Assembly (NCBI GenBank): GCA_025677605.1
Contig: GCA_025677605.1_4110.1
Reading direction: 5' to 3' (one strand)
DNA: 64,000 nucleotides
Source of the DNA: a phage
This document shows, piece by piece, positions 1,237-63,262 of this stretch (position 1 is its first letter; every line of letters starts with the position of its first letter). The notes beneath the pieces are model-generated. The model saw only the letters and a list, made by a program, of their open reading frames with translations, had not been told where the DNA came from and did not search any database. The position numbers and the translations under genes are program-made.

Positions 1237-2847
1237 TTATCCGTTTATATTTCTCCAGCTACCATCAACCAAAATTTGTATAAATTTATAATTCACACCA
1301 CCAATGTTATCAGCAGAGTTTTTACCAACATCTTGTACATTTATACCACTTAGTACTGCACCTGATGGACACACAAAGTGCCATGATAACTCATTACCAC
1401 CCGGCCAATAATAATCTTGATTGAAAAAACGTACATCTTGTACTGATCCGACAGATATATTTACATTACCGTCAGAACCAGCAGTTGAGCCGTTAACAGA
1501 ACGTACTATATGTTTCGTTCCGACAGTTGCTGATGCTGCGTTAACTGTTAATGAACCTGGAATATACAAAGAACCACCACTGTTAACTGTTACAGCACCA
1601 CCACCAGCACGAAGTCTTAGTTCATTACCTTGGAAGTATACTGCTGCACGTTCACCACCACTAGCGTTCTGGAAGAATAAGTACAAATCACCACCACCAC
1701 GAATACCAGCACGGTTAGCAATGTATAATTCACCAGACATTGTATCACCAGTTTTACGAACAAAACGATCATTTGCAGTATTTTCGCTCATCGCAACAGA
1801 TGGTTCGGAAATGTTATACAAAATTGCAGTGTTAAAGTGTGGTACGTCAATACCTGTTACTGTATGGTTATGGGTTATTGTGCGTGCATTCGCATCATCA
1901 TAAATTGGTTGTGAAGTTGATAATGCAGTTGCTGCATTGTTACCATCTACACTAAACTCCATACGGGCATTCTTATCACCAAAGATTGCAGGACCACGAT
2001 AGCCTCTACCATCATTCCATGCTCTACCACTAATGAAAACAGCATCATCCGCATCACTACCGTTAGTACCTAACATTTTACCAGTACCGTGAATATGATC
2101 AGGTATTGTGAAAGTACTAGGTGTTAATGAACCACCACCTGCTATCATTGCGTCAGTTTTGGTAATACCACTAGTTGTTATACTTCTTAAATATCCATCA
2201 CGGTTCAAGTTTGGTACTTGTTTCTTTATTGGACCATTAGTTCCTACCCATTCCCACCACATACCATCAGCAAAACACCAACCATCAGATGTTTTCCACG
2301 GTTTTGCCTGTGTGCCTTCTCTTCCATTCTGTCCACCAGTACTACCCGACATTTGTTCACGTATACTATCAACTGTTTGTCCAGATGTCAAGCTATAATG
2401 CATAATACATCCAGGTTTAGCACTCGTGTACAAACCATTAGCACCTTGAATTGATGAAGGTGTTGGGAATATAATATTCAATGTAGTTCCGCTAATAGAA
2501 GCAGTTGGAATTGATGACATTGAATAGGTTACTCTATCAACCTTAGTTCCAAGTATAGAATTGATATCCTGAATCTGTTGTTCAATTGGTGCAACTACAT
2601 CGGCAGCACTTAACATTTCAATCCAGTTAGTACCATCATGATACTTCAAAGTAAGAGTGTTTTTGTCAAATACTATCGCCCCTGCTTCACCAACAGGCAA
2701 ATCCTGAACAGGTAGTATTACCGATGAAGAATTCATTCTAATTGGTCGAGGATTAGTTGGTGTACCACCTAGTACTATTAGATTCAATGAACCATTTTCC
2801 GCAGTACTGGTTACAGTATTCTGTGGATGATTAAAACTTATGCTCAT
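1237..2847 (-). CDS. Tail fibre protein with phage tail-collar-like domain
   Basis: 536 aa; Gly/Ser/Thr-rich; segment PWKTSDGWCFADGMWWEW...VPNLNRDGYLRS matches the tail-collar pattern (GWxxCDG ... LPDLRG); late-promoter-like element upstream. Confidence 0.55.
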   Translation of the reverse strand: MSISFNHPQNTVTSTAENGSLNLIVLGGTPTNPRPIRMNSSSVILPVQDLPVGEAGAIVFDKNTLTLKYHDGTNWIEMLSAADVVAPIEQQIQDINSILGTKVDRVTYSMSSIPTASISGTTLNIIFPTPSSIQGANGLYTSAKPGCIMHYSLTSGQTVDSIREQMSGSTGGQNGREGTQAKPWKTSDGWCFADGMWWEWVGTNGPIKKQVPNLNRDGYLRSITTSGITKTDAMIAGGGSLTPSTFTIPDHIHGTGKMLGTNGSDADDAVFISGRAWNDGRGYRGPAIFGDKNARMEFSVDGNNAATALSTSQPIYDDANARTITHNHTVTGIDVPHFNTAILYNISEPSVAMSENTANDRFVRKTGDTMSGELYIANRAGIRGGGDLYLFFQNASGGERAAVYFQGNELRLRAGGGAVTVNSGGSLYIPGSLTVNAASATVGTKHIVRSVNGSTAGSDGNVNISVGSVQDVRFFNQDYYWPGGNELSWHFVCPSGAVLSGINVQDVGKNSADNIGGVNYKFIQILVDGSWRNING

Positions 2848-2878
2848 GTAAAAATCCTTTTTTGTTTAATATATATCA

Positions 2879-2886
2879 TATTTATA
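2879..2886 (-). promoter_or_regulatory. Candidate late promoter (TATAAATA on minus strand) for fibre gene
   Basis: Plus strand TATTTATA about 32 nt upstream of the 2847 start codon. Confidence 0.4.
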
Positions 2887-2887
2887 T

Positions 2888-3196
2888 CTATAGTAAATCA
2901 TTTTCCATATCATCCAATACGGAATCAATAATATTTGCAGCTAACTTTTTAGGCATCTTGAACCATTCAGAGTTAGGTTGCCTTGTTGCATTCATTTGCT
3001 TTAATCTCTTATGCACTTCCTTTTCTGCTGTTCGTGCATCGTCAAACATAACCTGATGGTATACCTCAAAATCCCTGAATGGTGAAGCAGTCTGGTAAAC
3101 ACCTAAACGCTCTTTCATCTCTGATTTTGTAGTGAAGCCTATCTTTACATATTCAGGCCATGCACTATTAGTGATTACATAACATATTTGTGACAT
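2888..3196 (-). CDS. T5orf172 / GIY-YIG-like domain protein (stand-alone, 102 aa)
   Basis: CYVITNSAWPEYVKIGFT...ERL...SPF...EVYHQVMFDDARTAEKEVHKRL...SEWF matches the GIY-YIG-like T5orf172 pattern (IYxxxN, KIGxT, R, E..H, EWF). Confidence 0.6.
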   Translation of the reverse strand: MSQICYVITNSAWPEYVKIGFTTKSEMKERLGVYQTASPFRDFEVYHQVMFDDARTAEKEVHKRLKQMNATRQPNSEWFKMPKKLAANIIDSVLDDMENDLL

Positions 3197-3226: not shown

Positions 3227-3577
3227 TTAACTAATTCTGAAGTTTACACCCGCATCTATCAGGCGTTGAAATGGATTTTGAGGATCAAACTCGGATGGGG
3301 TTTTAGGAGTGTTCAGTACTGGAGCATCAGCATGTAACTTCGACATGCGTTCTTTGTATTTGTCAATATATTCTTCATACAACATGTCTTCTGAATCAGT
3401 ACTCAATATATCTTCTATAAAATGATCAGTACTGTAATCCAGACGATCATCATTGTAATACAACGTCTCCGTAGCCTCATCATAACCCACCAACGTTCCA
3501 TAAGGAACATTGATCTCAATTTTTGAGTACTGACTCTTTAAGTACTCTTCTTTTTTAAAAATGTATACAGTTAACAT
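3227..3577 (-). CDS. Hypothetical acidic protein
   Basis: 116-aa ORF, same strand and tight spacing with neighbours; no recognisable motif. Confidence 0.4.
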   Translation of the reverse strand: MLTVYIFKKEEYLKSQYSKIEINVPYGTLVGYDEATETLYYNDDRLDYSTDHFIEDILSTDSEDMLYEEYIDKYKERMSKLHADAPVLNTPKTPSEFDPQNPFQRLIDAGVNFRIS

Positions 3578-3601: not shown

Positions 3602-4708
3602 TTATTCAAATGTATTTACAATCTCCAGTACTGTTTCAAGATACTTAGCATCAAAAGTTTCTGTGAATCCTGATGGCAACTCTTCAGTAGTTACTACACC
3701 ACTATCAATGTATTGTTTCAAAAACTTTTCCAGTACTAAGGGTTTATGACCATCTTCAAAGTAACGTTCTACCAGTACAGTGTGTTCAAAATCAGAATGA
3801 CGACTTTGCTCATTTACACGGCGTTTCATATCGCCAGTGATTCCATACTTGTACACTGTCTTATCTTTATTAGTTAGTTTTTGAACATAGAAATATCCAG
3901 GTTTTGATGGCTGATATCCATATTCACCACATGATGGGCATCCTTTACCAGCCATATGTGCTTTTGGTTGTTGGGAGAAAACACCATGAGTTGGACATAC
4001 AATATCAACATAATTCTCGCTTATAGTATATTCAACCAAACTATAATCATACTTATGGTTATGGATAGGTGATACCAGTTCAATGAAACGTTCAGTACTG
4101 CGACCACCTTTACCGGAGCATGTACCACAACCAGTCTTACCAACAAGTAAAGTTTTCGGATCAACTGTCCATTCATGGTTACCCGCTTTACAATACACAG
4201 TTACTTTAGTTTTTTGATTTACATATACTGTGTTAGTTAAATCTAATGAATCACCATAATTTTCTTTTACTTTTTCTACGAATTCTTCAGTACTGTATGC
4301 TTCATTTTTATTACATATAGGACATCCCTTACCAGTAAGAAATTTGTTTGGTGTAATTTCAAAGTAATCGTTATGTTCTTCGTCTGTACAGAGTATTGTT
4401 ACTTTTGTTATAGCGTTAATGTAATTTAGTTTATCAAATTTGAATTTATCTTTTCCAAATTTAGTTTCTACCGTGCTGATAAATTTTTCGTTGTTCGAAC
4501 GCTGTGACATGTTTGAATAACATGAAGAACATGTACATGAAATGTGACGTAGTGCAGGTTTAGTATTTTCTTTTCCGCATTTATTACATTTAACTGTTGT
4601 CTTACTGGCTTTGAATACTAAAGTGCTGAAATCAAATTCACCATATGCTCCATACTTGTTGTTCATCTCTTCAATGAATTTTTCTTTGTCGATACTTACT
4701 TTTGGCAT
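3602..4708 (-). CDS. Zinc-ribbon repeat protein with C-terminal GIY-YIG/T5orf172-like domain (possible homing-endonuclease-like or DNA-binding protein)
   Basis: Repeated units F..G(K)GCP.C (FLTGKGCPICN, LLVGKTGCGTCSGKG, HMAGKGCPSCG) plus CNKCG...CTCSSC; C-terminus GYFYVQKLTNKDKTVYKYGITGDMKRRVNEQSR resembles GIY-YIG/T5orf172; own consensus sigma70 promoter. Confidence 0.5.
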   Translation of the reverse strand: MPKVSIDKEKFIEEMNNKYGAYGEFDFSTLVFKASKTTVKCNKCGKENTKPALRHISCTCSSCYSNMSQRSNNEKFISTVETKFGKDKFKFDKLNYINAITKVTILCTDEEHNDYFEITPNKFLTGKGCPICNKNEAYSTEEFVEKVKENYGDSLDLTNTVYVNQKTKVTVYCKAGNHEWTVDPKTLLVGKTGCGTCSGKGGRSTERFIELVSPIHNHKYDYSLVEYTISENYVDIVCPTHGVFSQQPKAHMAGKGCPSCGEYGYQPSKPGYFYVQKLTNKDKTVYKYGITGDMKRRVNEQSRHSDFEHTVLVERYFEDGHKPLVLEKFLKQYIDSGVVTTEELPSGFTETFDAKYLETVLEIVNTFE

Positions 4709-4837: not shown

Positions 4838-6013
4838 TTACATGAAAGTAACGTTTTTGATAGCGATTTTGCTGTAGTAGTCCGCAGCGTTACCTAGTGA
4901 ACTGGTGCTATCGGTCAACTGAACATACCCGTATCTGGTTAAGAAAGTTGTAACGAGTTCTCCAGTGTTAGGGTCCATAACAGTACCAGATGCCATTAGT
5001 GGGATGTATGGGCAATAGAATACACCAGCATCAGTTTCTGCATTACCTTTATAACCAATTAGAATATCTTCTACGTCACTTGCGTAGGTATCAACAAAGA
5101 TACGCATGGTGCTGTTTAGAGTACCAACGAATTTAACGTTAGTTGGTGCTTCAAAAGTACCTTCAGTAGTACGTGCAAAGCTAGAAGTAGTTGCAGATTG
5201 TAGAATAGTTAGAGCGGTTGGGGAAACAACAGCCCAGTTCGCAGCACCACGTTTGGTACGACGAGCAACTTCGTTCGCTTGACGGTTGATTAGGGTAGCT
5301 AGAGCAGCGTGCTCATCACCAACGAAAGTAGCAACACCAGTTACTTTAGATTGGTCATAAGTTACAGCAGCAGCACCTGGTAGAGCACGTAGACGGCTTA
5401 GTAGTTCTTGGTCGATTTCAACGGTAACTTCTTGTGCGATAGCAGCCATTAGTTCAGCTTCAACGTCGATACCATGTTGAGATTGTGCATCTTGTGCAGA
5501 TTCAACAGTCCAGCGTGCAGATAGACGACGAGATTTCGCTTCAACAGTTTCACGTAGGATACGGATGTTAACGCGACGACCCATAGTACCTTCTAGTTGG
5601 CTAGTAGGAGCAGCTTGTGGGTTGCTGTTGTCAGAGTTTAGCTCACCAGTGTAAGATTTAGCAATCTTGAATGGAGATAGCATTTCTTCGCCAGCTACAA
5701 CACCTGGTGCGTTGTCAGCGTATTGAACACGTAGAGTGTGGATTTGACCAACTGGGCCAGTCATTGGTTGAACACCGATGATTTCGTTAGCGATAACGGT
5801 TGGCATTACACGACGCATAATTGGTAGAATCACTTTGTTTAGAGTAGCGATGTTACCAGCAGAAGTTGCACCAGCGGTTGCAGATTCTTGTAGCATAACT
5901 TTACGATGGTTATCAAGAACGGTTTCCATTACGGATTTACGAGTACCTTGAAGACCTTCAACTAGTTTCTCTTTAACTGCTACCCATTTGGATTCATTTA
6001 GTAGTTGTGACAT
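4838..6013 (-). CDS. Major capsid protein (T4 gp23-like fold)
   Basis: LPIMRRVMPTVIANEIIGVQPMTGPVGQIHTLRVQY matches the conserved gp23/gp24 segment (…RR.IPNLIAFDICGVQPM..P.GQ…LR..Y, from memory); sits after scaffold and protease in canonical order; strong RBS. Confidence 0.85.
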   Translation of the reverse strand: MSQLLNESKWVAVKEKLVEGLQGTRKSVMETVLDNHRKVMLQESATAGATSAGNIATLNKVILPIMRRVMPTVIANEIIGVQPMTGPVGQIHTLRVQYADNAPGVVAGEEMLSPFKIAKSYTGELNSDNSNPQAAPTSQLEGTMGRRVNIRILRETVEAKSRRLSARWTVESAQDAQSQHGIDVEAELMAAIAQEVTVEIDQELLSRLRALPGAAAVTYDQSKVTGVATFVGDEHAALATLINRQANEVARRTKRGAANWAVVSPTALTILQSATTSSFARTTEGTFEAPTNVKFVGTLNSTMRIFVDTYASDVEDILIGYKGNAETDAGVFYCPYIPLMASGTVMDPNTGELVTTFLTRYGYVQLTDSTSSLGNAADYYSKIAIKNVTFM

Positions 6014-7292: not shown

Positions 7293-7913
7293 TTAACCTT
7301 TTAATTTCTTGAAAAAATCATAAATTTCAGAATCTAGTTTATTTACTGATTTAGATTCTGCGATTTTTTTAGGTCCATTGCAAGGTGAGCCGTACTTACT
7401 CATCAAAGACTCAAATACCGCTGTTGGGTACGCTTCGGGAGCACTAGGTTGAGCAACAATATCAATTGTGATAATTTCGAAATCAGAAACTATTCCATTA
7501 TAATCAACGTTACCGGAACCACGAGAACTTACACCAAGTTTTACACCTGCTTCGAGCATTTTACGAATATTTTGACCATGTGCAGTATCAAGTAATTTGA
7601 TTTCTGCCATCCCATTAGAACCTTCCATCCAGACTTTAGTAATCATTGCTGCTACACGGTCAAGGTTAATAGTCAAAGTTTCAGGGTGGTCACATTCTAC
7701 TAGAATGCTTTCGCCTTTAGCCAAACGTTGAGCCATATTATTAACAGCTTTAGCAATTTCGGCTAAAGGGTAAATTCTTTCGTTCAAATTACGCTGGTCA
7801 GCTTGAATTGCGATACCACGAAGATAGCAATCGCGACCTCCCAGCCCATTATCACGATGTTCCATAACAATTTGTGAATCATTGAATGAAGACCATTCAC
7901 GAATCATACTCAT
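7293..7913 (-). CDS. Prohead core protease (gp21-like)
   Basis: 206 aa (T4 gp21 is ~212 aa); position between portal/core proteins and scaffold; segment CYLRGIAIQADQRNLNERIYP resembles the gp21 family. Confidence 0.65.
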   Translation of the reverse strand: MSMIREWSSFNDSQIVMEHRDNGLGGRDCYLRGIAIQADQRNLNERIYPLAEIAKAVNNMAQRLAKGESILVECDHPETLTINLDRVAAMITKVWMEGSNGMAEIKLLDTAHGQNIRKMLEAGVKLGVSSRGSGNVDYNGIVSDFEIITIDIVAQPSAPEAYPTAVFESLMSKYGSPCNGPKKIAESKSVNKLDSEIYDFFKKLKG

Positions 7914-10934: not shown

Positions 10935-13106
10935 TTAACTATTGCGTTCACCTTGTGTATTTTCAGAAATTGTTCTTAAGTAATTATTTGTCTGATTTGT
11001 TGCTGCGAGTGATTGTTCACTCATTTCTGCTAGACGTTTAAAAATTTCTTTGATCTCTTCTGAACTCATGTCATTATTTATAGTTCCGTTTTGTGGCGTT
11101 ACCAGAGATTTTATATCACGATCTGGTTCTGGTGGGAATGGTGCTTCACCAGGTTTCCATGCGGATTTATCATAATGTTTACGAGTTAATTCCATCATAG
11201 GTGGTGTATTTGGCATTACTGTAGTCTGGACGTTTTTAGGTGGTTCATAGCCCAAGACTCGATATGCATTATCTACGTTAAATGGTCTAGGTGGTGTATA
11301 TAATTTAGAAGATTTCCATTTTTGGAAGTCAAGTGTTTTTTCTTCTACAAATTTTGTGAAATCGTCTACTGAATTACCAATAGAATCCCAGAAAGATGTA
11401 GCTTTCTCTTCTATTTTCTTTTTAGGTTCTTCTTGTTTTTCAGATTTATCATCTGAACCAAACCATCCTTTTACTTTATCCCATAACTTTCCAGGTAAAT
11501 CCATGAGATTCTTCATGAAGTCATCGAATGCTTTTGAAACTTGAGTGTATGTATCACCAAATATATCTGCACCTAATCCTTCAAGCCACAATACAAATTC
11601 ATTACCGACACGATCAACATAAGCAACTGCATCCTTGAATATTGGAACTAACCCAAATCCATCTTTAGCCAATTCCCAAATAAATCCCCATGCACTATCG
11701 GTACGATCTGCAATTGCTGTCAAATAATCAACAACATTATTTTGAACATCAGCATACATTTTATTGAATGGAGCAACAAATTCAGTACTGACCCATCTGT
11801 TCAATCTATCAGTAAATTCTGCGATTTTATCTGCTGGTCGATTTTTGTCAGCATTAATTGCAGCTTCCATATCTAACATTTGCTTAGCAAATGCGGCAGC
11901 GGTGAAGTTTTGACTTCGTTGCATATCTTCCATATCTTTTTCAACGCGTTTTCTGTTTTTCTTCACCCACTGATATTGTGCTTCACGTATAGCTTTTGCA
12001 TCGGTTACACCAGACTTAACCATGTTCTCACCAAGGTCAGCGAATTCGCTAATCATTGGAGATAATAAATCATCAGGAACACCACCAATTGATATTCTGT
12101 GGCTAATCAATCTTAGGAAATCAGTACCCATATCCCCCATACCACCTGCCGCTTCGGTAAGTGCTTTAGTGGTTAATGTTGCGGTTTCTTCTGATAGTCC
12201 CACCCAGTTGTTTAGTGTAGTTTTTAGTATTCTTGCATCAAATGATTTATCAAGTGATTGTGTCTTTTTAAGTAATTCATCAATTGACATACCCATTGTC
12301 TTACTAAAAGTAGACATAGTTTTAATTAACTCTTGGGTACTTTGTGCTTGGTTTATATTCCTTACTAGTTCTGCACCACCAAATTGTTTTTGAATTTTGA
12401 TGTTACGTGCTGCTAAATCTGATAAAGTTTTTTGTGACATACCATATAGGCCAAGTTTATCTTGGGCATTTTGAACTACACCTAACAATTTACCAAATTC
12501 CTTAACGCCATCTCCATACGAACCATCCAATTGTGCAATAACATCACTATGAGTTGATATTACTTCACTGAATAGATCCATAGACATTAACGCTGAACCT
12601 GAACCTTTTAGCAAAGAGCCATAACCTTCAGCAAGAGAAACACCCGCACTGTTGACTCTGTTGTACATTTCAAGCTGGGCGTTCATTACGTTATATACTG
12701 CCATCCCTACATCAGCAACCATTTTAAATGCTGATGCTGCCATTCCTACAGGACCGGGAATCATAGAAAGAGAGCCAGCTACGGATGATGCACTCATACC
12801 CATTGAGTTAATGACAGTACTGACATTCGCTGAAGTACTCATCATTGTTTTACCAACGTTTGTCATTTCGCTGGACATTGCTCTGAACATTTTACCCATA
12901 GAGGATGAATTACCACGAGAACCGCGTCCACCACCACTTGGTCCAGGTGAATCGCCAGGTGATGGGTTACCACCACCATTATTTTTCTTTTTATCATTCT
13001 TTAAACTTTCTGCTAACAATTCACGTATAGCTGAAAGACCATCTACGGTATCATTAGATTTATTCACTATCTGTTGTAGTAAGTAATCACTGTTGTTTAC
13101 AGCCAT
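10935..13106 (-). CDS. Gly/Ser/Met-rich virion protein (tape-measure-like or ejection protein?)
   Basis: 723 aa; N-terminal GGGNPSPGDSPGPSGGGRGSRG then Met/Ala/Ser-rich helical segments; ends 16 nt before the portal start. Confidence 0.35.
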   Translation of the reverse strand: MAVNNSDYLLQQIVNKSNDTVDGLSAIRELLAESLKNDKKKNNGGGNPSPGDSPGPSGGGRGSRGNSSSMGKMFRAMSSEMTNVGKTMMSTSANVSTVINSMGMSASSVAGSLSMIPGPVGMAASAFKMVADVGMAVYNVMNAQLEMYNRVNSAGVSLAEGYGSLLKGSGSALMSMDLFSEVISTHSDVIAQLDGSYGDGVKEFGKLLGVVQNAQDKLGLYGMSQKTLSDLAARNIKIQKQFGGAELVRNINQAQSTQELIKTMSTFSKTMGMSIDELLKKTQSLDKSFDARILKTTLNNWVGLSEETATLTTKALTEAAGGMGDMGTDFLRLISHRISIGGVPDDLLSPMISEFADLGENMVKSGVTDAKAIREAQYQWVKKNRKRVEKDMEDMQRSQNFTAAAFAKQMLDMEAAINADKNRPADKIAEFTDRLNRWVSTEFVAPFNKMYADVQNNVVDYLTAIADRTDSAWGFIWELAKDGFGLVPIFKDAVAYVDRVGNEFVLWLEGLGADIFGDTYTQVSKAFDDFMKNLMDLPGKLWDKVKGWFGSDDKSEKQEEPKKKIEEKATSFWDSIGNSVDDFTKFVEEKTLDFQKWKSSKLYTPPRPFNVDNAYRVLGYEPPKNVQTTVMPNTPPMMELTRKHYDKSAWKPGEAPFPPEPDRDIKSLVTPQNGTINNDMSSEEIKEIFKRLAEMSEQSLAATNQTNNYLRTISENTQGERNS

Positions 13107-15691: not shown

Positions 15692-15723
15692 TTTCATAAA
15701 CTAACTTAGATCTAAGGCACATT

Positions 15724-50120: not shown

Positions 50121-52218
50121 TTATGCTAACAATTCCCTGTCTATTACAGATAGTTTCGGAAGCATCTTATTGCCCGTACAAGTTGGTGAACCGATTAATG
50201 ATAATTCAGCGATTACTGCAAAGTATCTCGCTGACCACCCAACTGTATTATTTGGGAATGAAATCCCAGATAATAGTCTTGGTAAGGATAATTATACTTA
50301 TTTGCAATTAGACCAAGAAAGTGGTGGTATCCTAGATATTTTCGCTAAGAAGAATGGTGCATGGATAAAATCAATGTATGTTAATACTAAAGTATTATCC
50401 AGTACTAATGGTTCTGATTATATTGGTTTGGTTTCTGGTGGAACACTACAACAAGCTTTGTATTATATAACACCTGAAGAATTTGGTGCTATCGGTGATG
50501 GTATTGCTGATGATACTGACGCAGTTCAAGCTTGTGCTGATTACGCTAAAGCTCATGATATCCAAATACAAGGTAAAGGTGTTTATCGTTTATCCAAAGC
50601 AATATATTTTGAAAATATTGAATGGTATGGTGGAACATTAACTGGCACTGGTAAAACAATGATATCAGCAACCAACTGTAAAATACAAGGGGCAAACATT
50701 GCTCGTAGTTATATTCAGTTTTCTGGTGGTAATGGTAAGTTCTATTTCAACCGCTTTTATGGTACAACATTCACCTGTGCATTCTTTATGCGTGATTTAA
50801 CTTCAGAAGGTATTCTCGACTTTTGTTTCAATGAAATGTACGATGTTAACTTTGGTGTTCTACAGCAAGGTGGTAGTGGTGAAATAGTAAAATATGCTCG
50901 CTATGCATATAACCATATTCACGATATCTATGGTGATGGTATTGAATTAAACGTAGTTTCAAGACACTTCACTGATGGTCTAATCATTGAAGGAAACCAT
51001 ATTGAAAACGTTGATGGTACTAACGCTCCAATCCCACTATCAAACTGGGGTATCGGTATCGGTGTTGCTGGTAAAGGTCCATATGGAGTTGATATTCCAG
51101 ATAGTCAATATGTTAAAAACTTCACTATTGCTCGAAATAGAGTATATAACTGTCGTCAATGTATACACGTTGAAGTCGGTAAGAATTTTAATATAATAGA
51201 TAATGAGACATTTCCATCAACCACAATATCAACTGGAACTGGCTTAACTGCCGCAGGTATCATCACTTATGGATGTCAAGATTTTGTTGTTGACGGATTA
51301 ACTGGTCGCTATTTGGATGATCCAGCAACTGCACCAACAAACAGAATGATTAAATTTACATGGGGTGTTAACCCTGCTGATGCAACACACCAATATGCAT
51401 GGTATGCAGGTCCACCAAAAGATTTTAAAGTTCAAAACGTTTTCATTCCTGAATCTAGTATAGAAATATACACATCCGGTGCAAACGCATGGACTAACGA
51501 AACTGATATGCACAATATAACTTGTGAAAAATTATATTGGCGTGGATTACCATCATCATCAAAATTCAGTAAAATTTATACAAAAAATTTAGATGTAATT
51601 GGTCAATATCAAGATGGTGAAGGTGGTGGCGTTTATACCAGAACTAATTATACATATACCAGTTGGATTGGTAATATAGTTCAAGATGACGCTAATATAT
51701 CAAATTATTCATTCTCACGAATGTATGTTGATAGAATAGATCAATCTGGTAATAACTTCACGGTAACAACTGAAATAGATGGAACTGGTCACCGTGGCCC
51801 AGTACTGATACCAGTCACGGAGCAATATTATCTACCTTATGATGAATTCCCAGGTGGTAGATATTTCCCCAAAGGAACAATTTTACACAAACAATCTGGG
51901 GGTAAATATGTAGTAACAGTAGCTGGTGCATTCGTAGGAAAATATGAACAGCTTAAAGCAGCAGTAGTTGGTGCTAAAACTATTAGAACACATAACACTG
52001 CATGGGGTACAAACCAATATGCTAAAGCAGCAGGTACAAGAATTGTAATTCCTGGTGCTGGTGAAAATGGAACTGATCTCCACACTCATATAACACGAGC
52101 TACATACGTGGTCAACTCGGTATTTTGCATTGATATAGCAGATGAAATAAAAACTGCTTTCCCTGATGGGACTCCATTGTTAGCCGAATCCCCAATTACA
52201 TACATTACACTTCCATAA
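50047..52218 (+). CDS. Tailspike with pectate-lyase-like (right-handed beta-helix) domain; candidate depolymerase
   Basis: ITPEEFGAIGDGIADDTDAVQACADYAKAH is the typical start of pectate-lyase-3-type beta-helix domains; N-terminal 25 aa shared with gene 52236. Confidence 0.55.
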   Translation: MAVFSNFEGTMKTKFILGKNGALINYANNSLSITDSFGSILLPVQVGEPINDNSAITAKYLADHPTVLFGNEIPDNSLGKDNYTYLQLDQESGGILDIFAKKNGAWIKSMYVNTKVLSSTNGSDYIGLVSGGTLQQALYYITPEEFGAIGDGIADDTDAVQACADYAKAHDIQIQGKGVYRLSKAIYFENIEWYGGTLTGTGKTMISATNCKIQGANIARSYIQFSGGNGKFYFNRFYGTTFTCAFFMRDLTSEGILDFCFNEMYDVNFGVLQQGGSGEIVKYARYAYNHIHDIYGDGIELNVVSRHFTDGLIIEGNHIENVDGTNAPIPLSNWGIGIGVAGKGPYGVDIPDSQYVKNFTIARNRVYNCRQCIHVEVGKNFNIIDNETFPSTTISTGTGLTAAGIITYGCQDFVVDGLTGRYLDDPATAPTNRMIKFTWGVNPADATHQYAWYAGPPKDFKVQNVFIPESSIEIYTSGANAWTNETDMHNITCEKLYWRGLPSSSKFSKIYTKNLDVIGQYQDGEGGGVYTRTNYTYTSWIGNIVQDDANISNYSFSRMYVDRIDQSGNNFTVTTEIDGTGHRGPVLIPVTEQYYLPYDEFPGGRYFPKGTILHKQSGGKYVVTVAGAFVGKYEQLKAAVVGAKTIRTHNTAWGTNQYAKAAGTRIVIPGAGENGTDLHTHITRATYVVNSVFCIDIADEIKTAFPDGTPLLAESPITYITLP

Positions 52219-53252: not shown

Positions 53253-56200
53253 ATGTACTCGATAAAAACAGATCTAGCAGTAACTGGTAATACTAATGTT
53301 GGTAAAGAATTATCAGTTAAAGGTAATGCGGTCTTCGATAAAAACGTAACCATTAAGGGGACCGTTAGTTTCGCTGATGCTACCTTCACTGCAATTACAG
53401 TAGATCAAGCAACAATCAACACAACACTCGATGTTACAGGCAAAGCGTCACTTAAGGGTGGAATGGATGTACTTGGCAATACAGTTATTGGTAATACTAC
53501 TGCTGGTTCCGATACAGCAACTATTAATTCCAATGCTACTTTTAATGGCACTTCTACTTTTGCCAAAGATATTACACAAACATCAGGAAAAGCAATTTTT
53601 CAAGATACCACCACTTCTGCATTAGAAGTTAATGGTACAACAACATTAAATGGTAACCTCACTGCTGCGGCAGCAACCACTGCAAGCTTTGATAAATTAA
53701 CTGCTAATGAAGCAACCATTGCAACTGTATCAGCAACTGATATTACTGCAACTGGTGCAACCGTTGAGAATCTAACTGTAACTGGTAAATTAGATGGTGA
53801 TTTCACATTAGGGGATGTTAATACCGATAATTTAGTTGTTGAAAAACTATCTACATTAAAAGGTGCTGTAACCCTAGAATCAAACATCATTGGTACTAAT
53901 ACTGTAGCAAACCTAAAAGCTGTATCTTTGGGTTCTAATGCAGCGGATTCGACTGCACGCCTAGGCTTTGCATATACTGCTCCTGGTTTACGCCCAACTG
54001 TAATTCTACAAAACGAAGTACAGTCCGAGCTAATGACACCAGCAAATCTAACAGTACTTAAAACTGCTACATTTGGTGATGTATCAGCAGCAACCAATGG
54101 TATTACCGCAAAAGGTTTGAACCTATTTGATTACCTAACACTTTCTGGTAACTCAATACAAGATCCAACCACACCAATTCTACGTGTAACTAAAGGTAAA
54201 ACACAATTAACTGACCTACAAGTTGATGGAACTACTAATATTACTGGTAAAACTACTGTTGGTGATTTGGATATTACTGGAACACTATCAGGTAACTTTG
54301 TACTAAGTGATATTACTGCGGATAATTTAGTTGTTGAAAAACTAACTACACTAAAAGGTGCATTAAACCTAGAATCTAATATTGTTGGTTCAACTGCGAA
54401 TGCTAATTTAAAATCTGTCACTTTAGGTGGAAACGTAGCAGACACGAATGCTAAAGTTAACTTTACATATACTGCTCCTGGTTTACGTCCAACTGTAATT
54501 CTACAAAACGAAGTACAGTCCGAATTAATGACCCCAGCAAATCTAACAGTGCTGAAAACTGCTACATTTGGTGATGTATCTGCATCTACCTACGGTATTA
54601 CAGCAAAAGGTTTGAACCTATTTGATTATTTGAAAATAACTGGTAATGCGGTACAAGATCCAAATACATTAACTCTAGATGTGGATGGTAAGGCTCAATT
54701 CAAAGACGTTAATTTCACTGGTACAGTTACTGGTTTTGTTCCTGACATTTCTGGTCAAGATATTACACCTAAAGATGTAACTGCTTCTGGTAATATTAGT
54801 GGTGTTAATCTAGATGCTTCTGGTACACTAACAGTTGATGGGGATTCCGTTCTAAAAGGCACAACTATAACTGATTTGACTGTTACTGGAACTACAACTG
54901 GTATTACACTAGCTGGTCAAGACATTACTCCTAAAGATGTAACTGCATCTGGTAATGTTAAAGGTGTTGACGTAACTGCATCTGGAAACCTAACAGTTGA
55001 CGGTACTACCACATTGGTTGGTAACACGGTAGTTGATGGTTTATTTGAAGTTGTTGGTCAAACAACCACTGTTAAAGATTTGAACGTTACTGGTACACTA
55101 TCTGGTGCTGCAATTAAAGCAAACGTTGATGGTCTAGACATTCTACCTAATTCTGTAACCACAACTGAAGAAGTTGCAGTGGGGACTAATCTAAGTGTTG
55201 GTGGAAACGCACTCTTTAGTGGCTTGAAAGTTGAAGTTACTGGTAAAGTTACTGGTGTTGGTTCTGATGCATTAGAAACTGGTTCAATTGAATCTGACGG
55301 TACTATCACTGCCCCAAATATCACAGCAACTACTAAAGTGACCGCAGCTTCCGCACAAATTACCGGAACCGGAACTGGTCTAAGTGTAGATCATAATGCA
55401 TCAGTTGGTGGTGATTTAAATGTTACTGGAACTTTAACGGCTGGTGTTATTGACCTAAGTGCGGCTGATGTAACTGTTAAAACACTTGATGTATCTGAAA
55501 GTGCACATGTAGGTGGAAACCTAACTGTTGATGGTACTGTAGATTTAAGTGCAGCAGATGTAAGTGTTAAATCTTTAACTAGTGCTGGTCCTGTGATTAG
55601 TAATGATGCTACTGGAACTAACATTCTACCAAAATTACAAAGTACTGATATTACTACAACTAACAGTACAACTGGTACAGCAACAGTAACTACAGCAAAC
55701 ATTTCTACATTAAATGTTACTGGTGAAAGTACATTGGCTGCTGTTTCTGCTGTTTCTGTAACTACTCCTTCTATTGTTAATACCGATGGTATTAATTTAG
55801 AAAATGATACAGTTGCACATGGTGACCTAACTGTTAAAGGTACATTTACACCTGAAGGTGGATTAGATTTAAGCCCAGTTGATATCAGTTCTAAATCATT
55901 AACAACAACTGAAGGTGCAACCATTGGTGGAAGCTTAACTGTTGATGGTGCAATTAATGCTGCTGCGGCAGATCTAACTGTTAAATCACTAACTTCTTCT
56001 GGTGTTATTACTGTTACTGAAAATACTGAACCAAGTATTCTACCAAAACTAACAAGTACTGAAGCAACCGCTGGTAAATTGAATGTTACTGGTGATGCAA
56101 CAGTCGGTGGTAAAGCGACCGTTTCTGGTGCACTTGAAGTTACTGGTGCTTCAACATTTGGTAACGCAGTAACTGTAAACGTCGGTGGTATTACTGCTAA

Positions 56201-58862: not shown

Positions 58863-59651
58863 ATGGCTCAATTTACATATGTGAGTGGTAGTTCAGCGGC
58901 AGATTACAAACTAGGTAAAATAATTTCTAATCCTAGAGGTGTTAAAGGTCAATCACGTAGTCCACAACCACCCAATGATCCTAGTGGTGAGTATTTTTAT
59001 ACATACGACGATGTTCGTCCATTCTATGGTATTAAACTAAATCCAAATGCAGAAATACCAAAAGCTGCTGATGAAATTCGCAAGAGAGAAGGCTTCTGGT
59101 GGTTAGAATATGTATCTGTTGGCGATAGAAATTCAAAGGGTGAATACCTTGAATATCGCAAAATTGAAGGTGATGCAGTAGTTACATTTAACGAAACCGA
59201 AGTAGCACCATATGCAGCATTAACCGCAGTAAAAACACAAACCTACATTGATATGGATTTGGCTGATGTTAAAGCTGATTTGAAGCAAAGAACCGCATAT
59301 GAACGAGATAATTTAATTAATAGTGGTTATCATTATAAAAATGCTGACGGAACAGTTGATGTAACATTCCCTAGTGATGTTAATGGTCGTCAGATGTTAA
59401 ACAACTATTATACACAAGCGATTAATGGTTCCCAAACTATTAATATCTATCTAGATAGTGGTGAGATTGTAACAGTTGATGGTGATGAGATGGTTGAAAT
59501 TTTCAATGGTCTATTGGCACAAATCGACGGATACTTTAATGACGCAATTGCACAACAAACTGCAATTGATGCAGCAACTACCATTTTTGATGCACAAAAA
59601 GCAGCAACTTTTGTATATCCAGATCAATCTAAGATCCCAGTACGTAATTAA
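58863..59651 (+). CDS. Hypothetical protein (possible fibre accessory)
   Basis: 262-aa ORF with RBS (GAGGAAA); shares DPSGEYFYTYDD-type motif with the 43217 protein. Confidence 0.35.
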   Translation: MAQFTYVSGSSAADYKLGKIISNPRGVKGQSRSPQPPNDPSGEYFYTYDDVRPFYGIKLNPNAEIPKAADEIRKREGFWWLEYVSVGDRNSKGEYLEYRKIEGDAVVTFNETEVAPYAALTAVKTQTYIDMDLADVKADLKQRTAYERDNLINSGYHYKNADGTVDVTFPSDVNGRQMLNNYYTQAINGSQTINIYLDSGEIVTVDGDEMVEIFNGLLAQIDGYFNDAIAQQTAIDAATTIFDAQKAATFVYPDQSKIPVRN

Positions 59652-59732: not shown

Positions 59733-61706
59733 ATGTCAATTAATAGAATTCGTGGTGATGGTGGTGTTATCATAGATAGCAAAGCATTCCTTGAACTACC
59801 AAAAGCCCCAACGATAGTAACAGCAGACCAAATGCGTACAGGTATGATTCGATACAACACTGAATGGAAAGCATTCGAAGGTGTTCTTGAATTTGAAGAT
59901 GGTTCAGTTGCGTATAGACGTTTTGCGAACCTAGATGCAAATGGTAAACTATTGTCATCTCAATTACCAGATTCTGTAACAAGTGGATTGCAATTCCTTG
60001 GTACATATGATGCTATTGAAGATGATACTAACCCACCCGCATCCTATGCAGCATTACCTGCACCATCTGTTTCCTTAAATGGTGATTATTATGTAGTTCG
60101 TGGTATTATGGATGCCGCACAAGAGCACTATACACAAAATACCCCTACAACAAGTCCAGTTAAATTCACACCAGTGAACCCAACTGGTCAAGGTGATTGG
60201 ATTGAAATTCTATATTATATAGATCAAAACCCAATTGAACCAACTAAAAAATTGGTAAGTTATGCATTTGCTCGTATTGTAACAACTGCAATCCCAGCAA
60301 GTGGTCATGAAGGTCTTGTGGATTTGGCACAAGATGAATCGATCACTACACCGTTTGATACATCTTTAACACCACAAGGTCAGACTGCATTAGCTGACAG
60401 TGATTGGATTATAATCACAGAAACGAAAAACATTCGCCTACGTCAGTCAAGAGCTAGTATTTCAGCTTCTTCAGTACTGTATGATAACACTATCATGGTT
60501 GGTAGTCAACGTCAATTTAGTACCAACGCAGGTACAGTTCAAACTACCTTAGATAACCTCGTATTAGAGGGCTTACGCCGCACTGGTGACTCTATGGTTG
60601 ATGATGGACTGATAGGCAAAGGAAGACTAGGGGTAACTTATGGTAGTGCTACAGAGCCAGCTATAGGCTTTAATAACGCTCCATATGACCCAAATACTAA
60701 CCCAGGAAACGATCCAAGTAAATGGACTGACACAAAAACTGGTATTTTCCACCCAGCAGATGCCGCTATTGGTTTAACCACAGCAGGTGTTGAACGTGTG
60801 AGAGTAACAAATGGTTCTTTGAATTTATATCAAAGCACTACTACTCCCGCATCTGCACCAACATTACGTTTTGCTAATGCTTCCAACACAAACGTAGGCA
60901 TTAGTGGTGAAAATAATATTTTGTCATTTAGTTCTATGAACAAAGTACAAGTTGAAATACAAAATGGTGTAACCAAATTACATGGAAACTTAGAAGTTGA
61001 TGGTATTAGTACTTTAACGGGTGATGTTACGGCGGTTTCAAATGTTACAACTAATGGTAATTTGAACGTTAAAGGGAATACTATATTAGGAACTGGTATT
61101 TCAACTAATTTATTAACAGTTAACTCGGTGTCCACGTTTAATAAAGAAACTAATTTTAACAATGCTAATAATAATTTTAATGGAATCCTGCTAACCAGTG
61201 GTAATTCATTTAGATTTGCACACGTTACCAACGATATTAATATGAAACTACTAAACGGTGAATTGCGTATGGATGTTCGTGGTTATGCGGATTTATCTGT
61301 ATATGACAGTAATGTGTTGCGTACACGTATTAACCGTTATGGTATCCAATTACCAGTACTAACAACTGTTAATGACAGTGAAGGTGTTGATGGTATGATT
61401 GCGTACTCTGAACAGAATAGAACATCAATGCAGAAAGTTGATGGTAAATGGGTTCCGATTGGTTCTGGTACAGTAAGAACTACATTATTCACTGTTGATA
61501 ATTGGGTACTTGATGGTGCATATTACAGACTGACAGTTCCAGAAACTGATATAGTTAATGCTGAAATTCAAGAACAAGTAGCAACTGATGAATTTGTTAA
61601 AGTTGATGTTGATAGTGTTAAGTTTACATTAACTGGTGTAGTTTATAGTATTCCTTCTTCTCCTGATGTTCGTTTTGCAGGAAGAACATTAGTAACAGTG
61701 AAATAA
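59733..61706 (+). CDS. Tail fibre protein
   Basis: 657 aa, beta-rich Thr/Asn/Gly composition, fibre-like repeats (NLEVDGISTLTGDVTAVSNVTTNGNLNVKGNTILG). Confidence 0.5.
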   Translation: MSINRIRGDGGVIIDSKAFLELPKAPTIVTADQMRTGMIRYNTEWKAFEGVLEFEDGSVAYRRFANLDANGKLLSSQLPDSVTSGLQFLGTYDAIEDDTNPPASYAALPAPSVSLNGDYYVVRGIMDAAQEHYTQNTPTTSPVKFTPVNPTGQGDWIEILYYIDQNPIEPTKKLVSYAFARIVTTAIPASGHEGLVDLAQDESITTPFDTSLTPQGQTALADSDWIIITETKNIRLRQSRASISASSVLYDNTIMVGSQRQFSTNAGTVQTTLDNLVLEGLRRTGDSMVDDGLIGKGRLGVTYGSATEPAIGFNNAPYDPNTNPGNDPSKWTDTKTGIFHPADAAIGLTTAGVERVRVTNGSLNLYQSTTTPASAPTLRFANASNTNVGISGENNILSFSSMNKVQVEIQNGVTKLHGNLEVDGISTLTGDVTAVSNVTTNGNLNVKGNTILGTGISTNLLTVNSVSTFNKETNFNNANNNFNGILLTSGNSFRFAHVTNDINMKLLNGELRMDVRGYADLSVYDSNVLRTRINRYGIQLPVLTTVNDSEGVDGMIAYSEQNRTSMQKVDGKWVPIGSGTVRTTLFTVDNWVLDGAYYRLTVPETDIVNAEIQEQVATDEFVKVDVDSVKFTLTGVVYSIPSSPDVRFAGRTLVTVK

Positions 61707-61738
61707 AAAAAAAGGGAGACAAATGTCTCCCTTTTCTA
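61705..61738. terminator. Bidirectional terminator between fibre gene and thyA
   Basis: AAAAAAAAA-GGGAGACA-aa-TGTCTCCC-TTTTCT. Confidence 0.6.
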
Positions 61739-62668
61739 TTATACAGCCATTGGTGCTTTGATTGTTGGCATTGGATTGTAATTCAAAAGTTTGAAAGAAT
61801 CCATTGTAAAATCTTCAATATCGGTAATTGAAGGATCTAGCCATAATTCTGGTAAATCACGCGGTTCACGTTGAAGTTGTTCTTTAACTTGTTCTACGTG
61901 GTTTTTGTAAATGTGACAATCACCACCATTCCAAATAAACTCACCAACCTCAAGTCCAGTGATTTGTGCAATCATATGGGTTAGTAGTGAATAGCTACTA
62001 ATATTAAATGGTACTCCCAAAAATAGATCCGCACTGCGTTGATGTAGAATACAGCTTAGCTTACCCTGTACGACACAAAACTGTACGAAGCTATGGCAGG
62101 GTGGTAAAGTCATATCATCAAGCTCACCAACGTTCCAGGCACTTAGAATGTGACGACGACCGTATGGATCTGCTTTGATACCTTCAATGACTTGTTTTAG
62201 TTGGTCAGTAACACGACGCATAACAACACCATGTGAACCAGTATAATCAATTACTTTATAACCTTTATCTTTTAATTCTTGAATTTCTGCTGTACTGGCA
62301 CTGAATTTATAATCTTCCCATTCACGCCATTGCTTACCATAAACTGGTCCAAGCTCACCATTAGAATATCCAAGAGCTACACCTTGATTAAGGTAGTTGT
62401 CTGTCCAAATTGTTTTCTTTTCCCAATCACGAGTGCCGTGTAGAATTTCACACAAGCGACGCTCATCATGAGAACCTTCAATGAACCATAATAATTCTGA
62501 AGTCATTGCTTTCCAAGCTAAACGTTTGGTTGTCACTGCTGGAAAGCCTTGTTGAAGGTCAAAACGCATTTGTTGACCGATTAGTTTGATAGTACCTACA
62601 CCTGTACGATCAGTACTTTCTACGCCTTCATCCAGAATTTTTTGATATAGTTCTTGTAGTTGTTTCAT
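61739..62668 (-). CDS. thyA: Thymidylate synthase (ThyA/td family)
   Basis: DRTGVGT..FG.QMRFDL..GFP.VTTKR, LPPCHSF.QF.V..GKLSC.L.QRS.D.FLG.PFNI.SY..L.HM.AQ.....GEF.W.GGD.H.Y.NH matches ThyA active-site segments. Confidence 0.9.
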   Translation of the reverse strand: MKQLQELYQKILDEGVESTDRTGVGTIKLIGQQMRFDLQQGFPAVTTKRLAWKAMTSELLWFIEGSHDERRLCEILHGTRDWEKKTIWTDNYLNQGVALGYSNGELGPVYGKQWREWEDYKFSASTAEIQELKDKGYKVIDYTGSHGVVMRRVTDQLKQVIEGIKADPYGRRHILSAWNVGELDDMTLPPCHSFVQFCVVQGKLSCILHQRSADLFLGVPFNISSYSLLTHMIAQITGLEVGEFIWNGGDCHIYKNHVEQVKEQLQREPRDLPELWLDPSITDIEDFTMDSFKLLNYNPMPTIKAPMAV

Positions 62669-62671
62669 TGT

Positions 62672-63262
62672 TCATCCTTGAAAAAATGTTGTAAAGTGCA
62701 TCATATGCTTTTCTTGTGCATTTCTTGAGCCTATTCCCGTCCAATTTCCATGCGGCTTAGGTACTGATGCGGTTTCTTCGAATTCTTTTAGTACTGGATT
62801 ATATGAATATACTTTTCTGTCATTAATGTCATAGCAGTATATTTCAGGATTATCAGTACTGTCAATATACATTTGTACAGCCCATGCAGTACCACCACTA
62901 ACTTGAGTAGGTGAAACCAGTGATGCCATACAATAAACTCTCTCTGTGTTTAAAATTTGATATCTATTACGAGCTAATAGATTATAAACATACGAGCCAG
63001 GTTTAGGTACACGGCGTTGTAATGAATAACATGCCATGTTTAGTTGATGTAGAATAGAACTATCATTCAAAATATAAGATGGGATTTCTAATATAGTACT
63101 TTCATCAACACTATGATTATGATTTTTGAATGAAAAGTTAATTACATTAAAACCATTTTCCATAGCATATAAAGTGAAAAAGCGGTCTGCACCTTGTGCA
63201 CCACCGCTATAAAATGTATTAGTTAATCCCTTGATTGCTTCATCAAGTTCATTTATCGTCAT
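62672..63262 (-). CDS. Rossmann-like protein with SLOG-type glycine motif (DprA/LOG/deoxyribosyltransferase-like superfamily?)
   Basis: N-terminal FYSGGAQGADRFFTLYAMENG and later VSGGTAWAVQ resemble SLOG-superfamily motifs; weak. Confidence 0.3.
   Translation of the reverse strand: MTINELDEAIKGLTNTFYSGGAQGADRFFTLYAMENGFNVINFSFKNHNHSVDESTILEIPSYILNDSSILHQLNMACYSLQRRVPKPGSYVYNLLARNRYQILNTERVYCMASLVSPTQVSGGTAWAVQMYIDSTDNPEIYCYDINDRKVYSYNPVLKEFEETASVPKPHGNWTGIGSRNAQEKHMMHFTTFFQG

Follow-up and report, generated by a model that had tools for sequence, protein, structure and literature searches.

Excess of the palindrome (C)AGTACT(G) in enterobacterial jumbo phages and an unrelated temperate siphovirus family, and its possible role as a self-DNA tag

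The 64-kb stretch of phage DNA analysed here (contig GCA_025677605.1_4110.1, referred to throughout as the window) is 99.1–99.3% identical over its full length to Escherichia phage A4 (ON286972.1), a 355.5-kb jumbo myovirus of the genus Asteriusvirus, in the 121Q/PBECO4 group of Rak2-like phages. It maps to approximately 157.2–221.2 kb of the A4 record, on the reverse strand. All 44 annotated A4 genes of this stretch are intact open reading frames (ORFs) in the window, with a coding share of 94.6%, and their products are mainly virion and baseplate proteins, together with a gp55-like late sigma factor, gp46/47-like nucleases and a thymidylate synthase. The element studied here is the palindrome AGTACT and its extended octamer form CAGTACTG, together written (C)AGTACT(G), which is 3- to 9-fold more common in the window than the encoded proteins and codon usage allow.

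AGTACT occurs 111 times in the window, between positions 53 and 63100, with a mean spacing of 573 bp. The majority of the sites (104 total) lie inside a coding sequence (CDS), and the other seven are intergenic or span a gene boundary (exact matches at 53, 7241, 8835, 15585, 15654, 27237 and 27248). The octamer CAGTACTG occurs 24 times. It is found once in a tail-fibre gene (1237–2847, minus strand; octamer at 2802–2809), twice in a hypothetical gene (3227–3577, minus; 3314–3321 and 3427–3434) and three times in a Hef-like endonuclease gene (3602–4708, minus; 3626–3633, 4093–4100 and 4288–4295). Further copies lie in a structural gene (10935–13106, minus; 11783–11790 and 12815–12822), the gene at 13214–13702 (minus; 13229–13236), a gp46-like recombination nuclease gene (16236–18383, minus; 16268–16275), the baseplate hub/lysozyme gene (23582–26245, plus; 24154–24161 and 24679–24686), a baseplate wedge gene (27277–30741, plus; 28616–28623) and the gene for a 3325-aa structural protein (30823–40800, plus; 32595–32602, 40520–40527 and, in the frame CAG-TAC-TGG, 37591–37598). 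The remaining intragenic copies are in a ClpA-like gene (40835–43120, minus; 41965–41972 and 43025–43032), structural genes at 43229–44725 (plus; 44085–44092), 46573–47670 (minus; 46609–46616) and 59733–61706 (plus; 60472–60479), a depolymerase-like gene (50047–52218, plus; 51800–51807) and the gene at 62672–63262 (minus; 62854–62861). The only intergenic octamer (27236–27243) is paired with an AGTACT at 27248–27253 in the leader of the baseplate wedge gene, where an ATAAATA box resembling a late promoter lies upstream of the pair; the two copies of this 27236–27253 element can pair as a weak 7-bp hairpin (−6.7 kcal/mol, z = −0.6, not significant). The density per gene varies widely across the window. 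The 351-bp gene at 3227–3577 contains five AGTACT, and the genes for the major capsid protein (4838–6013), the prohead protease (7293–7913) and the late sigma factor (19411–20250) contain none.

The first-pass annotation had reported about 23 exact CAGTACTG sites between 2802 and 62861, where composition would give about one, and many further AGTACT. The first and last copies indeed define this span, and the positions that it cited (3314, 4093, 16268, 27236 and 62854) are all exact. The excess is real, and stronger than claimed. Dinucleotide-preserving shuffles of the window gave 0.97 ± 0.96 copies of CAGTACTG (maximum 4) and 18.5 ± 4.2 copies of AGTACT (maximum 32). The form TTCAGTACTG, which had been described as frequent, with its TTC prefix, applies to 8 of the 24 copies.

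AGTACT is the most over-represented palindromic hexamer of the window (5.1-fold relative to base composition), and ranks first among all hexamers when compared with synonymous-codon shuffles (z = 12), followed by its own sub-word CAGTAC/GTACTG. Codon-aware null models were built on the 44 mapped CDS. Shuffling of synonymous codons within genes gave 37.0 ± 4.6 AGTACT (111 observed) and 2.75 ± 1.2 CAGTACTG (24 observed). A shuffle that retained the amino acids and all dinucleotides gave 61.2 ± 4.5 and 6.3 ± 2.0, respectively. Because the A4 genome has been purged of many palindromes, a further null was added, in which synonymous swaps were barred from creating any of 26 absent palindromic hexamers or GCGC. 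It gave 30.4 ± 5.9 AGTACT, compared with 104 intragenic sites, and 2.4 CAGTACTG, compared with 23. Thus, the four nulls all fall far below the observed counts, ruling out composition, dinucleotides or codon usage as the cause, and the last of them rules out a by-product of restriction-site avoidance. Modelling of codons and dinucleotides, which the first-pass annotation had expected to be decisive, did not bring the ratio near 1.

The sites occupy all three reading frames; their occurrence in different frames had been noticed at first. The frame AGT-ACT is observed 57 times compared with 21.4 expected from the protein sequences, xxA-GTA-CTx 37 times compared with 5.8, and xAG-TAC-Txx 10 times compared with 1.9. 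The corresponding dipeptides are not enriched in the window (Ser-Thr 136 compared with 118, Val-Leu 96 compared with 100), which argues against a cause at the protein level. A repeated gene segment was also considered, and is ruled out by the unique flanks of the 111 sites, any two of which share at most 23 of 40 flanking bases. The AGTACT excess therefore arises through synonymous codon choice in all frames. The conclusion that the signal is at the DNA level, which had been drawn from inspection, holds; it is further supported by a non-coding site density about twice the coding density in A4, and by the symmetry of the flanks described below.

The anatomy of the word was examined using the window and approximately 750 intragenic A4 sites, read on the sense strand. 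The nine one-mismatch neighbour classes of AGTACT are present in the window at 0.67–1.33 of expectation, and since these neighbours are not depleted, we rejected conversion from a neighbouring word of the very-short-patch type. Outside the full word, AGTAC and CAGTAC occur at about 1.15-fold of expectation by subtraction from hexamer counts, giving no clear half-site excess. C occupies position −1 in 46% of the sites and G in 9%; at position +6 the shares are 49% for G and 7% for C. The flanks carry about 0.35 bit at ±1, with a weak preference for T on the left and A on the right extending to ±4. Sites within two of eight flank mismatches from the 14-bp palindrome ATTCAGTACTGAAT number 66, compared with 7.4 expected. 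The signal is thus the whole two-fold-symmetric word in double-stranded DNA. The mirror symmetry of the flanks, seen with the sites read along the sense strand, argues for a two-fold-symmetric reader acting on double-stranded DNA, rather than for a signal in the sense RNA.

The entire A4 genome was put together from its annotated pieces, and 594 ORFs were called. It contains 922 AGTACT (120 expected from base composition, 7.7-fold) and 224 CAGTACTG (3.7 expected), and every 10-kb bin is enriched for AGTACT. Within genes, 770 AGTACT were observed compared with 227 in synonymous shuffles (3.39-fold), and 182 octamers compared with 19.5 (9.3-fold). The hexamer excess spans only 2.8–3.8 over early, metabolic, replication and structural regions and over gene lengths. 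Non-coding DNA contains 4.5 sites per kb and coding DNA 2.4 per kb, and 83% of the sites are intragenic. Beyond the first 30 kb the spacing is Poisson-like, with 200 pairs within 120 bp compared with 204 expected, and periodic or phased spacing was rejected for all of the genome outside the early promoter array.

The densest part of A4 is an array of small early ORFs at 1–30 kb of the record, outside the window. Within this array (record 4–25 kb), AGTACT occurs at fixed places in sigma-70-type promoters, next to the −35 element (AGTACTTGCA...) and immediately 5′ of the −10 element (AGTACTGTATAAT). Both copies are often present in the same promoter, 20–22 bp apart. A subset of A4 early promoters shows the fixed position, which is not a feature of the 104 sites inside genes of the window. 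An ORF-less 2-kb segment of the A4 record (L004, 4100–6200) contains about 25 AGTACT, many of them ATTCAGTACTGAAT-like, and an array of approximately 20 tandem 8-bp units resembling CTAGACGG at 5196–5357. No Rfam match was found in this segment.

Several other word biases were observed in the phage. The window lacks 26 palindromic hexamers and GCGC, and 25 of the 64 palindromic hexamers are absent across all 355 kb of A4. Examples of purged words, compared with synonymous shuffles, are CTGCAG (0 compared with 28), CAGCTG (0 compared with 21.5), GGTACC (0 compared with 18) and ACCGGT (0 compared with 12.6). GATC is halved (110 compared with 213), as is AAAAAA (81 compared with 163). TAAATA occurs 36 times inside window genes compared with 105 under synonymous shuffles, and TATAAATA is rare genome-wide (9 and 4 copies on the two strands, compared with 47 and 38.5), a shortage that looks like avoidance of spurious T4-type late promoters. 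The Escherichia coli Chi octamer GCTGGTGG is present in A4 21 times on the plus strand and twice on the minus strand, where about 1.3 are expected; the window contains one copy per strand.

The first-pass annotation had treated the excess as a feature of this phage, and had proposed a comparison with relatives and host. Contrary to the former, the word is common to the enterobacterial jumbo-phage clade and to an unrelated temperate siphovirus family. Loci of approximately 40 kb centred on the portal gene were compared within the jumbo clade. AGTACT was the top hexamer, 4.9- to 7.7-fold above composition, in 121Q, BF17 and EJP2 (Asteriusvirus), K64-1 (Alcyoneusvirus), Salmonella phage SE_PL, CBB and GAP32 (Mimasvirus), with a synonymous-shuffle excess of 3.0–4.6 in each of the seven. 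The excess does not extend to more distant relatives. AGTACT is not enriched in Vibrio phage 2.275.O (8 compared with 13.9), and is nearly gone from Pseudomonas phage PA5oct (1 compared with 14.3 overall, 0 compared with 8.6 intragenic), which avoids it. CTGCAG was considered as a replacement palindrome in PA5oct, and rejected, as it is not among the top hexamers under an order-2 Markov model.

Conservation of individual sites was determined from codon alignments of 20–24 orthologous genes, using hexamer identity as the baseline. Window sites are conserved in 24 of 41 cases in 121Q (0.59, baseline 0.29), 25 of 48 in BF17 (0.52, baseline 0.32), 11 of 33 in CBB (0.33, baseline 0.14), 10 of 40 in GAP32 (0.25, baseline 0.14), 10 of 49 in EJP2 (0.20, baseline 0.15) and 8 of 41 in K64-1 (0.20, baseline 0.15). 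They are thus conserved roughly two-fold above hexamers in general, and most of them turn over. Since the number of sites is similar in each jumbo genome compared, density is conserved while individual sites turn over. From these sequence comparisons, the density excess appears to be maintained by selection across a clade of at least four genera.

The host and other coliphages are poor in the word. AGTACT occurs 4 times in 100 kb of E. coli K-12 (23 expected from composition), 5 times in the whole lambda genome (11.9 expected), once in 20 kb of T5 (6.5 expected) and 6 times in 50 kb of T4 (16.9 expected). With codon usage modelled, the deficits in the host (0.43) and T4 (0.71) rest on small counts and are not clearly significant. 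A4 has no commoner palindromic hexamer than AGTACT, which in the E. coli sample ranks among the rarest of the 64; it occurs about every 400 bp in the former and about every 25 kb in the latter. The resulting phage-to-host density ratio of approximately 65 is the highest of the 64.

IMG/VR was scanned for two CAGTACTG within 30 bp, and also for three copies. The scans returned Rak2-like jumbo contigs and a family of 31–35-kb contigs with a guanine-plus-cytosine (GC) content of 0.40–0.44 and extreme enrichment; one of them (L032) contains 54 AGTACT compared with 4.5 expected, and 23 CAGTACTG, in 14.8 kb. Genes of this approximately 32-kb family encode an HK97-type capsid and protease, a major tail protein, a tape measure, a J-like fibre and a large serine integrase, indicating a temperate siphovirus. 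No megablast match was found in cultured phages or E. coli genomes. A genome scan located the siphovirus as a prophage in Leclercia tamurae and in a Leclercia metagenome-assembled genome, with a J protein 92–94% identical. At the Leclercia locus, AGTACT occurs at 4–15 sites per 2 kb in the prophage, 3–4 per 2 kb in the boundary bin at 16–18 kb, and 0–2 per 2 kb further out in the higher-GC flank. For the two Leclercia loci together, 10 sites remain beyond 16.5 kb compared with 3.6 expected, the prophage boundary being mapped imprecisely. AGTACT density thus tracks the phage DNA, and not its chromosomal surroundings.

The full octamer accounts for 31 of the 69 prophage sites. Compared with synonymous shuffles, the siphovirus structural genes contain 40 hexamers where 11.3 are expected (3.5-fold) and 17 octamers where 1.83 are expected (9.3-fold), with a split of 22:5:13 between frames 0, 1 and 2. 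This signature is essentially that of the jumbo phage. A strong AGTACT excess was also observed in four further IMG/VR contigs (L104, L166, L167 and L039), which do not cluster at the DNA level with either lineage. L104, an isolate-genome prophage with a GC content of 0.36, contains 34 AGTACT compared with 2.9 expected. These contigs may represent additional carriers in lower-GC hosts.

On this evidence, we tentatively favour, though with somewhat less than even confidence, the explanation that (C)AGTACT(G) is a signature word maintained by selection, serving as the recognition site of a two-fold-symmetric (dimeric) putative DNA-recognising protein, which is most probably phage-encoded. Such a reader would need sites spread evenly, with one hexamer per 0.4–0.6 kb and one octamer per 1.6–2.7 kb. 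We infer that a protein reads the word, that the phage encodes this protein, and that the reading serves a phage function. With a density in phage DNA some 65 times that in E. coli DNA, the word may serve as a "self" tag, by which such a function would act on phage and not on host DNA; candidate uses are coating or compaction, selection of the DNA to be packaged, and protection during an attack on host DNA. Given the extreme contrast between phage and host, a self-DNA tag appears to be the most economical functional reading. It is possible, but rather less likely, that at least two unrelated enterobacterial lineages, the Rak2-like jumbo myoviruses and the approximately 32-kb temperate siphoviruses, use (C)AGTACT(G) as a dedicated self-DNA tag, to which a candidate reader would bind every few hundred bp. 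Phage and host DNA would thereby be told apart, so that phage DNA could be packaged or protected, or host DNA selectively destroyed. The two lineages could have come to share the tag because the reader spread horizontally, or because they converged on a palindrome that is among the rarest in the host chromosome. Among the four functions that were first proposed for the word, a binding site fits best, in the form of a protein reading a symmetric word in double-stranded DNA; a modification target is left with no candidate enzyme, and a nuclease or processing site and a packaging or organisation motif may still apply.

Several observations weigh against a phage-encoded reader and a self tag. When the 594 A4 ORFs were compared with the siphovirus loci (BLAST, E ≤ 0.05), the two shared just a lysozyme and an AP2/HNH homing-endonuclease C-terminal module, in a comparison that small diverged proteins would escape and that covers the siphovirus genome incompletely. 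With so little shared gene content, a phage-borne reader requires either convergence or a homologue too small or diverged to detect. Pfam and PHROG scans of the window proteins and of 29 siphovirus ORFs revealed no obvious DNA-binding reader or methyltransferase. A requirement for the exact hexamer, as strict as here, is seen more often with restriction or modification enzymes than with regulators, and the notion of a self tag is in part the density ratio put in other terms. Individual sites are under weak selection, which is what a many-site trait would lead one to expect: at the 0.9% divergence that separates the window from A4, sites contain 4 differences where 5.9 are expected, and 4 sites are present only in the window and 5 only in A4. 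Finally, two A4 islands at 25.25–29.75 kb (25254–29749) and 31.57–38.87 kb (31570–38869) contain no AGTACT, where about 4.3 would be expected under the synonymous-shuffle null and about 14.5 at the genome-wide excess. These islands are shared within the genus, the second with other Asteriusviruses. The second island consists of a paralogous family of small genes with a conserved FQYS motif (CAG TAC AGT), which accounts for 46 AGTACA read on the sense strand, where TGTACT does not occur.

The shared AP2/HNH module was considered as the reader and rejected. The homing-endonuclease family to which it belongs is present in 1467 phage records, and the module itself (A4_397/A4_398) is sporadic even in Asteriusvirus, where no other record reaches 60% identity. 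In A4 it comprises two adjacent ORFs in different frames (L005, 11568–12214), whose joint matches are a single 221-aa protein of the Leclercia siphovirus and, in PHROG 953, the C-terminal half. Judging from these matches, it looks like a split or frameshifted DNA-binding module of an AP2-type homing endonuclease, without a recognisable nuclease domain.

The main rival explanation places the reader in the host. An Enterobacterales protein would read the word, and the phages would recruit a factor that they need, or titrate or divert a harmful one, by a logic that resembles the build-up of Chi in phages lacking RecBCD inhibitors. Such a reader would fit the similar excess in two unrelated Enterobacteriaceae phage lineages (hexamer 3.0–4.9-fold; octamer mostly about 9–15-fold, with extremes of 4.3 and 15.4), which share no detectable DNA-binding gene but only a host family, as well as the lack of excess in the Vibrio and Pseudomonas relatives and the evident adaptation of A4 to host DNA machinery in the enrichment and strand bias of its Chi sites. 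We nonetheless regard it as unlikely, because T4, T5 and lambda grow in the same hosts and are not enriched, because the host chromosome is itself poor in AGTACT, and because the sole known host site that contains AGTACT, the SlmA-binding sequence, is excluded by its flanks. We know of no Enterobacterales protein with AGTACT specificity. The narrower proposal that the sites load the nucleoid-occlusion factor SlmA (binding sequence GTGAGTACTCAC) and so block cell division is scarcely credible. AGTACT is the core of the published binding sequence and SlmA is active only when DNA-bound (PMC3020112), but binding requires G, T, A and G at positions 1, 2, 4 and 5 and a purine at position 3 (PMC3020112). 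Position 3 of the phage sites is C in 47% and G in 8%, position 1 is not enriched for G (15–17%), sites within three flank mismatches of the SlmA sequence are below chance (69 compared with 119), and GAGTACTC does not occur in the window; SlmA sites are thus contradicted by the flank statistics. AGTACT could instead be a target of DNA modification (N6-methyladenine or N4-methylcytosine, by a phage or host enzyme), kept frequent as an epigenetic mark, for instance one that distinguishes replicated DNA or phage DNA, or as a packaging signal, which we consider quite unlikely. The exact word with sharp edges is as for Type II enzymes, AGTACT being the ScaI/Eco255I site, and these phages do encode methyltransferases. 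RaK2 DNA is reportedly cut only by methylation-insensitive enzymes (PMC3622015), but its 5-methylcytosine has been reported as being of the CpG type (PMC3622015), and AGTACT contains no CpG. Two methyltransferases are recognisable in A4, where most proteins have no recognisable family: a PF05869 T1-type enzyme of the Dam family (A4_406) and an intein-split C5 enzyme (A4_120). Neither could be linked to AGTACT. A4_406 was rejected as the writer, given that its family is very broad (2096 phage records) and that GATC itself is under-represented; A4_120 (L008, 21347–23245) is a 632-aa C5 cytosine methyltransferase split by an intein with Hint and LAGLIDADG domains. In addition, no methyltransferase was seen among the siphovirus ORFs scanned, targets of restriction-modification are normally avoided rather than enriched, and the graded preference from ±1 to ±4 is unusual for such enzymes.

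The early promoters of A4 raise the alternative that the word is a transcriptional operator only, through which a regulator switches early promoters, the intragenic copies being incidental. The fixed, often paired positions at the −35 and −10 elements and the two-fold higher non-coding density favour this, but the predominance of intragenic sites, their equal 2.8–3.8-fold excess in early, replication and late structural genes, and the presence of 104 of the 111 window sites within late structural genes do not. A text search of the CBB supplementary files gives AGTACT in the terminator table only, and not in the promoter tables. An operator role explains the architecture of the early region and not the uniform intragenic selection; alone it cannot explain synonymous-codon selection at about 770 places, and as the whole account it is improbable. 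It is decidedly improbable, too, that the word has no reader and its excess is a side effect of biased mutation or repair, of codon-pair bias or of the removal of other palindromes, even though the excess is uniform over all gene classes and similar in unrelated phages, the constraint per site is weak at shallow divergence, and the genome is heavily edited at the word level. This explanation is contradicted by the palindrome-barring null (30 compared with 104) and by the shuffle retaining amino acids and dinucleotides (61 compared with 111), by the enrichment of all three frames and of non-coding DNA, by one-step neighbours that are not drained, unlike in the CTWGG/CCWGG pattern of very-short-patch repair, and by conservation at about twice the baseline. 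The host, T4, T5 and lambda replicate in the same cells without the excess, and the two A4 islands escape it. A signal in RNA or single strands has also been weighed, with copies of the self-complementary octamer pairing as hairpins, terminators or transcript contacts. The palindrome is present in every transcript crossing it, symmetric flanks would also be favoured by longer self-pairing, and copy pairs do form stems (window 27237/27248, a CBB terminator, and L127 4399–4440). Even so, this is highly improbable, given the Poisson spacing, in which close pairs beyond the early region are no more frequent than expected, a window hairpin no more stable than shuffled sequence, the lack of enrichment of wobble or one-mismatch variants, and copies at promoter positions that are not transcribed. 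Mutation or repair bias, codon-pair bias, an avoidance by-product and RNA self-pairing are therefore disfavoured, because each fails at least one direct test.

Additional features of the window were recorded. Divergence from A4 is patchy: the segments at 58863–59651 (93.3% identical), 21106–21420 (94.9%), 61739–62668 (97.1%) and 1237–2847 (97.3%) are diverged, and many of the neighbours of these genes are 99.5–100% identical. The occurrence of genes at 93.3–97.3% among such neighbours suggests patches of mosaic recombination. The gene for the proximal subunit of the long tail fibre contains an internal repeat of about 355 bp (53814–54168 and 54309–54663, approximately 81% identical), and is the sole place of insertions or deletions relative to A4 (18 gap positions). 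A stretch of 895 bp without an annotated gene (14829–15723) lies between a small ORF (14667–14828) and the endonuclease VII gene, and carries the two AGTACT at 15585 and 15654. Rfam and transfer RNA scans gave no match anywhere in the window.

No description of an AGTACT or CAGTACTG excess in jumbo, 121Q, RaK2 or Asteriusvirus phages was found in the searchable literature. Searches for ScaI with jumbo phages or RaK2 returned nothing relevant, the sole match to "SCAI" being a Klebsiella selective medium, and searches for over-represented palindromes in phage genomes likewise returned nothing relevant. The genome papers of CBB, RaK2 and Sharanji treat promoters and methylation, and not the AGTACT word. 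The word bears on the question of how jumbo phages with unmodified DNA and no phage nucleus distinguish their own 350-kb chromosome from that of the host, for which a word present about every 400 bp in one and every 25 kb in the other would be an obvious handle. That an unrelated temperate siphovirus shows the same word at the same excess suggests that enterobacterial phages have either a molecular reader or a selective logic in common. In practical terms, ScaI maps of such phages are predicted to be either extremely dense or blocked altogether, AGTACT sites should not be treated as neutral when these genomes are recoded synthetically, and the word offers a cheap k-mer marker for such phages in metagenomes.

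Comparison with known systems shows that (C)AGTACT(G) is of a known kind, the genome-wide over-represented signal word exemplified by Chi, uptake sequences and stoperators, and that its sequence and its carriers are new. Two of the systems compared share the word itself. ScaI/Eco255I recognises the identical exact hexamer with no tolerance of mismatches, but restriction targets are avoided by phages, whereas A4 has purged 25 palindromic hexamers and yet holds AGTACT at 7.7-fold; no cognate enzyme gene was recognised. The SlmA sequence GTGAGTACTCAC has the same central hexamer in a 12-bp palindrome without a spacer, read by a dimeric helix-turn-helix protein of the TetR family, which indicates that a symmetric dimer can read such a word, although the phage sites tend not to have the flanks that SlmA needs (G1, T2 and a purine at position 3).

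The stoperators of mycobacteriophage cluster A resemble the present case as a single protein-binding word dispersed well beyond promoters. They differ in being asymmetric 13–14-mers oriented with transcription, mostly intergenic, present at about 25–35 per genome in temperate phages, and bound by a repressor. Here, some 900 palindromic sites, 83% of them intragenic, are carried by a virulent jumbo phage; no integrase or immunity repressor is annotated in the jumbo phages. Chi (GCTGGTGG) is likewise a short exact word far above expectation, under weak selection for density, accommodated in genes through synonymous choice and read by a DNA-processing machine. Unlike (C)AGTACT(G), which is palindromic with symmetric flanks and rare in host DNA, Chi is asymmetric and biased in orientation, read by the host RecBCD, and enriched in the host chromosome. 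The DNA uptake sequences (DUS) of Neisseria and the uptake signal sequences (USS) of the Pasteurellaceae are genome-wide self tags of 9–12 bp that discriminate own from foreign DNA, with hundreds to thousands of evenly distributed copies in several coding frames, and sometimes in terminator stems. The present word shares with them hundreds of even copies in all frames, and a density that is kept while sites turn over. DUS and USS are asymmetric words of chromosomes, recognised by the competence machinery, whereas here the carriers are viruses, both virulent and temperate, and the word is a palindrome of 6–8 bp. If the proposed role is correct, the self tag would be a viral counterpart of uptake sequences and Chi.

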